A DNA stretch of 60,537 bases from Escherichia coli (GTDB taxonomy: Bacteria; Pseudomonadota; Gammaproteobacteria; Enterobacterales; Enterobacteriaceae). Under the pieces are notes generated by a model. The model saw only the letters and a program-made list of their open reading frames with translations, had not been told where the DNA came from and did no database searches. A program made the position numbers and the translations under genes. The stretch lies in NCBI RefSeq assembly GCF_003334255.1, contig NZ_QOWU01000027.1; one strand, given 5' to 3'. This document shows positions 50,820 to 52,849 of the stretch, piece after piece; the first letter of the stretch is position 1, and every line of letters starts with the position of its first letter.

Positions 50820-51701
50820 TTAACGCGGCACATTTGCGGGATCGCAATAGTCCAGAAAGCGCCGTAGCGCGTTGGAAAGGTGTTTTTGCCGATGATGTAT
50901 ACGCCACAACGTACGCATCAGGCGCGGCAGAGGGACCGCAACTTCACTTAATGTGCCTGCCTGCAATTGATCTTCAATCACACGTCGCGACAGGCAACTA
51001 ATTCCCAACCCATGACGCACCGCATGTTTGATTGCCTCGGAGTTACCTAATTCCATCGCCATCTCAAACTTCGGTAAATGTGACAGCAACAGATAATCGA
51101 CAATCTCCCGCGTGCCGGAACCGCGTTCACGCAGGATCCACGGCGCAGCGGCCAGCTGTTCTAAGGTGACCGGACCACGGGCCAACGGCGAAGTCGGCGC
51201 GGCGAAAACCACCAGCTCGTCTTCCAGCCACGGTTCAGAAATGATTTCAGTGCTGTGGCACGGTCCTTCAATAAAGCCAATATCAACGCGGAAATCCAGC
51301 ACCGCTTGCATCACGTCCTGGCTATTCCCAACGCTAAGTTCAATCGGCAACTGCGGATAATCATGGCGATAACGGGCGATAACTGCAGGCAGAATGTAGT
51401 TACCGATGGTACTACTGGCATAGATACGAATCGCGCCGTTGTCTTCGCGAAACAGTTGTTCGATTTCAACCGCCTGTTCAAGCAATGCCAACGCACGCGG
51501 ATAGAGCAGCCGCCCGTGTTCATTAACAACCAGTCTTTTCCCCACGCGATCAAACAGTTGCACGCCAAGCTGCCCTTCCAGGTCGGTCAAGGCTGCGCTC
51601 ACTGCTGATTGCGACAACGCCAGCATCACCGACGCCTGGGTGGTTGATCCACTTTTCAATACTTCTGCAAAAACTTCCAACTGCCGGAGGGTGATGTGCA
51701 T
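50820..51701 (-). CDS. yeiE: YeiE, LysR-type transcriptional regulator (293 aa)
   Basis: ORF 50820..51701 (-); N-terminal LysR HTH; divergent from yeiH. Confidence 0.92.
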
Positions 51702-51799
51702 AGTCGCTTACCACTTATAAAGATTAATTATAAATATATAATCAATTTTATTTTTAAACCAGTTAGTCGTAACCTTATGCCCGGTTAAAGGAGAGGGTT

Positions 51800-52849
51800 A
51801 TGACGAATATCACCTTACAGAAACAACATCGTACACTGTGGCATTTTATTCCGGGGTTAGCCCTGAGTGCAGTTATCACCGGGGTCGCCCTGTGGGGTGG
51901 TTCCATTCCCGCGGTTGCGGGTGCCGGGTTTAGTGCCCTCACCCTCGCAATCTTGTTGGGGATGGTTTTAGGCAACACCATCTATCCGCACATCTGGAAA
52001 AGCTGTGACGGTGGTGTGCTGTTTGCCAAGCAATATTTATTACGTCTGGGTATCATTCTTTATGGCTTCCGTCTGACGTTCTCGCAAATTGCCGATGTCG
52101 GTATCAGTGGGATCATCATTGACGTGTTGACGCTGTCCAGTACCTTCCTGCTGGCTTGCTTCCTGGGGCAGAAAGTGTTTGGTCTGGATAAGCACACCAG
52201 CTGGTTGATCGGTGCCGGTAGCAGTATCTGTGGTGCTGCCGCGGTACTGGCGACTGAGCCGGTAGTGAAAGCGGAAGCCAGTAAAGTAACCGTGGCTGTT
52301 GCAACCGTTGTTATCTTCGGGACCGTCGCGATTTTCCTCTACCCGGCGATATATCCGCTGATGTCTCAATGGTTTAGTCCGGAAACTTTCGGTATCTACA
52401 TTGGTTCTACTGTGCACGAAGTGGCGCAGGTGGTGGCGGCAGGTCATGCCATCAGCCCGGATGCGGAAAACGCAGCAGTTATTTCCAAAATGCTGCGCGT
52501 GATGATGCTGGCTCCGTTCCTCATCCTGCTGGCGGCGCGTGTTAAACAGCTGTCTGGGGCGAACAGCGGCGAGAAAAGCAAAATCACTATTCCGTGGTTT
52601 GCCATCTTGTTCATCGTAGTTGCCATCTTTAACTCGTTCCACCTGTTACCGCAGAGCGTGGTGAACATGCTGGTAACGCTGGATACCTTCCTGCTGGCAA
52701 TGGCGATGGCGGCGCTGGGTCTGACCACTCACGTCAGCGCGCTGAAAAAAGCTGGGGCGAAACCTCTGCTGATGGCACTGGTACTGTTTGCCTGGCTGAT
52801 TGTTGGTGGTGGTGCGATTAACTATGTGATTCAAAGCGTCATCGCATAA
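51800..52849 (+). CDS. yeiH: YeiH, UPF0324-family inner membrane protein (349 aa)
   Basis: ORF 51800..52849; GGAGAGGG SD upstream. Confidence 0.9.

Follow-up and report, generated by a model that had tools for sequence, protein, structure and literature searches.

The yeiE–yeiH locus

The window, that is, the whole stretch of 60,537 nucleotides of Escherichia coli DNA considered here, carries two divergently oriented genes, yeiE and yeiH, with a short A+T-rich region between them:

50820–51701, minus strand: yeiE (open reading frame and RefSeq annotation), coding for a LysR-type sulfite-sensing regulator of 293 amino acids
51702–51799: divergent control region of yeiE and yeiH, 98 bp, equivalent to NC_000913.3 2249619–2249716 in strain MG1655
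51800–52849, plus strand: yeiH (open reading frame and annotation), coding for a PF03601 inner-membrane protein, the sulfite-resistance effector (function from PMC12880088)

The gap was found in 5426/5426 complete E. coli genomes, in which the RefSeq names of the flanking genes are YeiE and YeiH, and yeiH is divergent from yeiE in 79/79 related loci. The gene calls and the divergent layout of a preliminary description made from the sequence alone were thus correct. As in other LysR-type operators, the 98 bp lie between the regulator gene (minus strand) and its divergent target (plus strand). The A+T content is 70% in the gap and 88% in its core.

Close homologues of the window's YeiE possess the PF00126 [HTH_1] and PF03466 [LysR_substrate] domains, and the protein itself has 8/8 of the residues which contact sulfite in Cronobacter YeiE (S96, S97, N126, S127, E145, R191, S195 and T197; PMC8931317). 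Since all of the sulfite-binding residues are present we regard the regulator as a true YeiE; its domains and these eight residues place it among the sulfite-sensing LysR-type regulators of the YeiE/FinR group. The binding of sulfite by YeiE was described by Hong et al. 2022 (PMC8931317), and in Hyphomicrobium YeiH has been described as a sulfite exporter (PMC12423496). One E. coli entry (P0001) has a YeiE-like protein of 349 rather than 293 amino acids, with additional weak Pfam matches to PF12727 and PF12849; the extra length may reflect a wrongly called start codon or a fusion.

Transcription initiation

Both genes have start sites mapped by Kim et al. 2012 (PMC3415461, supplementary file 2). 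On NC_000913.2 that of yeiE lies at 2247664 (minus strand, 16 reads, 5' UTR of 24 nt) and that of yeiH at 2247722 (plus strand, 13 reads, 5' UTR of 17 nt). The sequences flanking them match the window exactly, giving the following arrangement:

51725, minus strand: yeiE transcription start (+1; PMC3415461)
51733–51738, minus strand: putative yeiE −10 element TATATT, placed from the published start site
51770–51775, plus strand: putative yeiH −10 element TAACCT, at −13 to −8
51783, plus strand: yeiH transcription start (+1; PMC3415461)
51789–51795, plus strand: yeiH ribosome-binding site AAAGGAGA, 94–99% conserved, 5–7 nt before the ATG

The putative yeiH −10 element shows the TAnnnT pattern among related loci, with T51770 and A51771 never varying and T51775 conserved in 92%; no −35 element was recognizable in the yeiH promoter. 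A simple scan of the region for sigma-70 consensus promoters, together with a terminator scan, gave no matches. The sigma-70 holoenzyme alone selects the yeiE–yeiH spacer in vitro by genomic SELEX (PMC3946193), and the two results together fit weak, regulated promoters. The E. coli gap represents the shortest version, with a 24-nt yeiE leader lacking an obvious ribosome-binding site; most other genera have 20–30 extra nucleotides on the yeiE side.

Symmetry in the intergenic region

The preliminary description had drawn attention to two strings, TTATAA-N7-TTATAA and ATTATAAATATATAAT, as dyads fitting the T-N11-A pattern of LysR-type boxes, and both are present where it placed them. They belong to these elements:

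51715–51720: outer TTATAA, a possible secondary half-site, −68 to −63 of yeiH
51728–51733: inner TTATAA, common to TTATAA-N7-TTATAA and the central dyad, 99–100% conserved
51723–51746: central dyad ATTAATTATA-AATA-TATAATCAAT, centered between 51734 and 51735, with the core RATTAT-N6-ATAATC at 51726–51743

The outer and inner TTATAA are 7 nt apart. The 16-mer ATTATAAATATATAAT (51727–51742) reads ATTATA-N4-TATAAT and is the core of the central dyad, the family consensus of which is ATTRATTATA-N4-TATAATCAAT. A repeat search lengthened it to 13-nt arms (51720–51732 and 51737–51749) which are 85% complementary.

Because the published yeiH start is 51783, the central dyad occupies −60 to −37 of that promoter (center −48.5); relative to yeiE it extends from +3 to −21. 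The yeiE start site falls within its left arm and the putative yeiE −10 element at its exact center, so that it overlaps the regulator's own promoter, as LysR-type operators do. An RNA element was considered and rejected, the dyad lying outside both mapped transcripts and giving no match in Rfam.

The single sequence says little about the significance of these repeats. In 5000 dinucleotide-preserving shuffles of the 70% A+T gap, the T-N11-A pattern was expected 10.2 times, against 12 observed (p = 0.28), and perfect 6-nt inverted repeats within 8 nt were expected 0.66 times, against 2 observed (p = 0.16). Dyads whose 10-nt arms contain no more than one mismatch turned up in 7% of the shuffled gaps (p = 0.07) and in 28% of shuffles confined to the 88% A+T core (p = 0.28). 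On one sequence, then, the dyads are mostly not distinctive and barely above chance.

A match to T-N11-A is uninformative here because in DNA of this A+T content the pattern occurs at chance frequency. Furthermore, the central dyad is even-centered, its symmetric T/A pairs being T-N10-A and T-N12-A, and it is therefore not a symmetric T-N11-A box. TTATAA-N7-TTATAA, the sole odd-centered dyad of the region, does have a symmetric T-N11-A (T51718 to A51730). The earlier statement that the dyads fit this pattern consequently holds in the formal sense for one of the two, of which just half is conserved (see below).

No further copies of the dyad were found elsewhere in the 60-kb window. The 35-nt stretch 51718–51752 is identical in 5409/5426 E. 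coli genomes and single-copy at BLAST sensitivity.

Conservation within the Enterobacteriaceae

A scan of a genome collection with YeiE yielded 80 Enterobacteriaceae loci (protein identity 82–100%), 79 of which had upstream DNA; these supplied 77 distinct yeiE–yeiH gaps for alignment, the gap length ranging from 97 to 247 bp among the 79 loci. Three adjoining blocks stand out, which together occupy −76 to −21 of yeiH:

51707–51718: left block CTTACCACTTAT, 87–100% conserved, a candidate distal LysR-type site, −76 to −65 of yeiH and +19 to +8 of yeiE
51722–51750: near-invariant block GATTRATTATAAATATATAATCAATTTTA, 29 nt, 28/29 columns at least 95% conserved in the 77 sequences
51751–51762: right block TTTTTAARCCAG, conserved, a candidate activation site, −32 to −21 of yeiH and −26 to −37 of yeiE

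Positions 51736–51750 are invariant in all 77 sequences. As a neutral control we took from these genomes the four-fold degenerate positions of yeiE, at which the consensus frequency averages 0.60 and just 1.7% attain 95%. Within the yeiE coding sequence no more than 5 successive columns are at 95% or above. The block 51722–51750 is thus conserved far beyond neutral sites or any stretch of the yeiE coding sequence.

Within this alignment the two dyads fare differently. In the outer TTATAA the bases TTAT (51715–51718) are 97–100% conserved, while 51719–51721 are at just 64–79%, and because the latter vary TTATAA-N7-TTATAA is not conserved as a dyad. The single common variant within the near-invariant block is A/G at 51726, with G in about a third of genera, and this G makes the 10-nt arms perfect (ATTGATTATA-N4-TATAATCAAT). 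Since a variant at 51726 perfects the arms, and since the core persists in distant loci despite a change of spacer (see below), the symmetry itself looks to have been selected, judging from the aligned sequences. In 76/79 of the Enterobacteriaceae loci, and in three more distant ones (L083, L090 and L091), there is a single copy of the core RATTAT-N6-ATAATC, always within this gap.

The left block is no core promoter element of yeiE or of yeiH; the right block overlies the −35/spacer region of yeiH and the −35 region of yeiE. All of the length variation in the gap lies next to the yeiE start codon (the 51702–51706 side in the window), the block itself keeping a fixed distance from the yeiH ATG.

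In several Citrobacter genomes (locus L011, 2331–2480; also L016–L018, L020 and L048) an insertion of about 125 bp, beginning TATACCCTAAATAATTCGAGTTGCAGGAAGGCGGCAAG, lies between the yeiE start codon and TACCAC. It would fall in the yeiE 5' leader, just left of the equivalent of window position 51709, and since it immediately precedes TACCAC it marks the left edge of the constrained DNA. We take it to resemble an ERIC/IRU intergenic repeat. A rearrangement in 1/5426 genomes (E. coli AST216, locus L095) splits yeiE from the gap and yeiH, with a breakpoint at about window position 51694 adjoining phage tail-fiber genes and a recombinase gene; the operator region and yeiH are intact.

Loci of more distant relatives

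The search for close homologs returned near relatives only, and the distant orthologs were obtained through a search of representatives and contig look-ups. The gaps beside them contain the following:

L083, YeiE identity 68%: perfect ATTGATTATA-AAAA-TATAATCAAT, with TAACCT at equal spacing
L092, YeiE identity 69%: right arm present, left arm degenerate
L090, YeiE identity 53% (L090/L091): GATTAT-N6-ATAATC, with a changed spacer
L086, YeiE identity 52%: right-arm-like sequence only, ATTATCCGTTTT
L093, YeiE identity 49%: right-arm-like sequence only, TTATTCGTTTTT

TWACC blocks related to the left block are also seen in distant ortholog loci, and L083 retains a repeat with a 13-bp offset, together with a perfect ATC-N9-GAT, at the position of TTATAA-N7-TTATAA. 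A direct repeat of the form TWAYCNNTTWT with a 31-bp offset (TTACCACTTAT at 51708–51718 and TAATCAATTTT at 51739–51749) takes first place, alone or shared, in L083, L090 and L086; it is unremarkable in E. coli and was found post hoc, and we treat it as a hint only. The offset amounts to three helical turns and joins the left block to the right dyad arm.

The recognition-helix sequence SQSAxSxAL is common across the YeiE/FinR family, and with so nearly identical a helix the comparison did not separate lineages which keep the dyad from those which lack it. Among relatives of about 50% identity, L084, L089 and L094 are not adjacent to yeiH. Homologs at this level (L089, 181–537; L094, 658–1191; L088, 2933–3976) adjoin other sulfur-related genes, namely a rhodanese, or an Rrf2 regulator with a cysteine-desulfurase-like gene, and at one such locus yeiH is arranged tail-to-tail rather than divergently.

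Regulation by YeiE

Much of the regulation at this locus has been established in Salmonella Typhimurium. There Westerman et al. 2026 (PMC12880088) found that purified YeiE shifts a fragment carrying the yeiE/yeiH regulatory region and that the protein represses transcription from its own promoter. [quoted passage not shown] In E. coli a strong YeiE ChIP peak at the yeiE regulatory region is attributed to Gao et al. 2018, as cited in PMC12880088; Gao et al. 2018 also tied YeiE to iron genes. The proposal in the preliminary description that YeiE controls the adjacent yeiH is borne out by the Salmonella gel shift, autorepression and yeiE-dependent sulfite induction (PMC12880088).

The Salmonella enterica gap (locus L096) is 120 bp, as compared with 98 bp in E. 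coli, the extra 22 bp lying in the yeiE leader, and it is identical to that of E. coli across 51708–51763 (56 bp). The published PyeiE reporter primers map to L096 983–1005 and 1528–1550, giving a 568-bp product that spans the gap. Because the identical DNA lies inside the reporter fragment, the two experiments which the preliminary description had proposed, a gel shift with purified YeiE and a yeiH reporter in a yeiE deletion, have in essence already been published for Salmonella with the predicted result, on fragments of several hundred bp. No motif, footprint or site mutation of the yeiE/yeiH site is reported in PMC12880088, and we found no footprint or mutational mapping of the operator in the accessible literature.

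YeiE is reported to target the cysJ promoter in both Cronobacter and E. coli; in the latter (MG1655, L082 5900–6214) this promoter contains no ATTGATTATA half-site within 2 mismatches. The dyad being single-copy and absent from cysJ, the wider set of YeiE targets is therefore not derivable from this motif.

The arrangement resembles other divergent operators of LysR-type regulators, such as those of BenM/benA and CbnR with the sliding dimer: the regulator is divergent from its target with an A+T-rich dyad between, the conserved stretch covers about −76 to −21, the regulator's −10 and +1 are overlapped, and the target promoter is without a good −35. It is unlike them in that the dyad is an even-centered 10-N4-10 at −48.5 where the canonical site is a 15-bp T-N11-A near −65, and in that the distal block at −76 to −65 has little symmetry. 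FinR of Pseudomonas aeruginosa, a homologous and likewise sulfite-responsive regulator, has the same divergent layout, and its operator, at −46 to −83 relative to the promoter of its target, overlaps the finR promoter as well (Boonma et al. 2017, PMC5302815); the target, unlike here, is fprA and not yeiH. The FinR box TATCCA-N5-TGGATA was looked for in the gap and discarded, the best match being 7/12, which 90% of shuffles reach (p = 0.9). An OxyR half-site was likewise discarded, its consensus match being at chance level.

The putative operator

Based upon these data we regard the 98-bp gap as a compact control region shared by two divergent promoters set back to back, and its A+T-rich central dyad as most likely the main YeiE operator. 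The suggestion that an A+T-rich dyad in this region is a LysR-type binding site was therefore sound in that it pointed to the most conserved DNA of the locus, in a position typical of the family; for the exact bases contacted by YeiE, the sub-site on which it is anchored and its ligand-dependent shift, we rely upon inference.

Under the general model for LysR-type regulators (reviewed in PMC11495319), a YeiE tetramer would span roughly 51707–51762 (−76 to −21 of yeiH), with its strongest contacts presumably on ATTRATTATA-N4-TATAATCAAT (51723–51746). That this stretch matches the usual extent of a LysR-type tetramer footprint (PMC11495319) counts in favor of a YeiE operator. With the yeiE −10 element at the dyad center and +1 in the left arm, bound YeiE would block RNA polymerase from both and so bring about autorepression. 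The right arm ends at −37 of the yeiH promoter, so that YeiE would sit against the −35 region. The yeiH promoter, with its weak −10 element TAACCT and no usable −35, would be silent without sulfite-bound YeiE. Sulfite is envisaged to change which flanking half-sites are taken by the second DNA-binding dimer and thereby to recruit polymerase to yeiH, the resulting YeiH conferring sulfite resistance.

Several observations speak against the central dyad as the operator. Its center lies at −48.5 of yeiH and not at the canonical −65, it is even-centered rather than a symmetric T-N11-A, and orthologs at 49–52% identity retain right-arm-like sequence only. The missing half-site at E. coli cysJ and the mismatch to the FinR box point the same way. 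LysR-type operators are expected to have a recognition site near −65 and an activation site near −35; here the conserved extent is −76 to −21, with the strongest dyad centered at −48.5. Part of the conservation of the block must, moreover, be due to promoter elements, given that the dyad includes the putative yeiE −10 and that the spacer is selected by sigma-70 holoenzyme alone.

These difficulties invite other explanations. It is unlikely, in our opinion, that TTATAA-N7-TTATAA (51715–51733, with its center at 51724, or −59 of yeiH) serves as the primary site and the central dyad an overlapping secondary activation site. As the only odd-centered dyad, with a symmetric T-N11-A, the former has the canonical geometry of the family (PMC11495319); it is nearer to −65, the TTAT of its outer half is near-invariant, and the 13-bp-offset repeat and perfect ATC-N9-GAT of L083 (68% identity) fall at its position. 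Against this, positions 51719–51721 in its outer half are 64–79% conserved as compared with at least 99% for their symmetric partners, the exact TTATAA has become TTATTA, TTATTC or TTATAT in many genera, and the central dyad is both longer and better conserved. The block might instead be conserved mainly as the packed core elements of two overlapping divergent promoters, with YeiE binding elsewhere in the cloned fragments, which are far longer than the gap in the published gel-shift and reporter work. The putative yeiE −10 at the dyad center, perfect TATAAT hexamers on both strands and the selection of the spacer by sigma-70 holoenzyme alone (PMC3946193) all accord with such packing. We judge it very improbable all the same: an unbroken run of 15 invariant positions, at −11 to −25 of yeiE, is not what promoter spacers and upstream elements normally show; promoter function leaves unexplained both the symmetry of the dyad and the variant which perfects it; the left block (+8 to +19 of yeiE, −76 to −65 of yeiH) is no promoter element; and both promoters are weak, neither registering in the consensus scan.

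That the dyad is the site of some other DNA-binding protein (ArgR, Fur, IHF or a nucleoid protein preferring A+T-rich DNA) strikes us as hardly credible. In its favor are the very high A+T content of the DNA, the connection between YeiE and iron genes made by Gao et al. 2018, and a match of 51729–51746 to the 18-bp ARG-box consensus at 14/16 positions (uncorrected p = 0.009 among the 9 patterns examined). This lone ARG-box-like match was rejected for want of a second box beside it, and it lacks the key G of TGAAT. Fur reached 12/19 (p = 0.30), and matches to IHF, CRP, Lrp and FNR were at chance. A nucleoid-protein site would not need invariance at the level of single bases, and the element always accompanies the yeiE–yeiH pair. 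At L083 the yeiE homolog is closely followed downstream by a gene for an arginine repressor; this and the ARG-box-like match are probably a coincidence.

Within the preferred reading, that of a YeiE operator, a non-canonical form deserves mention as a tentative and rather doubtful suggestion. Three TTATA-type half-sites (51715–51720, 51728–51733 and 51737–51743) might share the middle one, sulfite moving one YeiE DNA-binding dimer between the upstream T-N11-A dyad at −59 and the downstream even-centered dyad at −48.5. If this were true, one small shift would both relieve yeiE repression and activate yeiH, within 98 bp.

Significance

The control of yeiH by YeiE is already known from published work, and since the regulatory link is not new the present analysis adds no new biology: this is an ordinary LysR-type control region. 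What is added is a precise and testable candidate site, placed against mapped start sites, and a warning that matching to T-N11-A is meaningless in A+T-rich DNA. YeiE–YeiH is emerging as a defense of enteric bacteria, pathogens included, against sulfite stress. An operator defined at the level of single bases would enable the construction of clean operator mutants, the design of a sulfite biosensor and a search for further genes controlled by YeiE.
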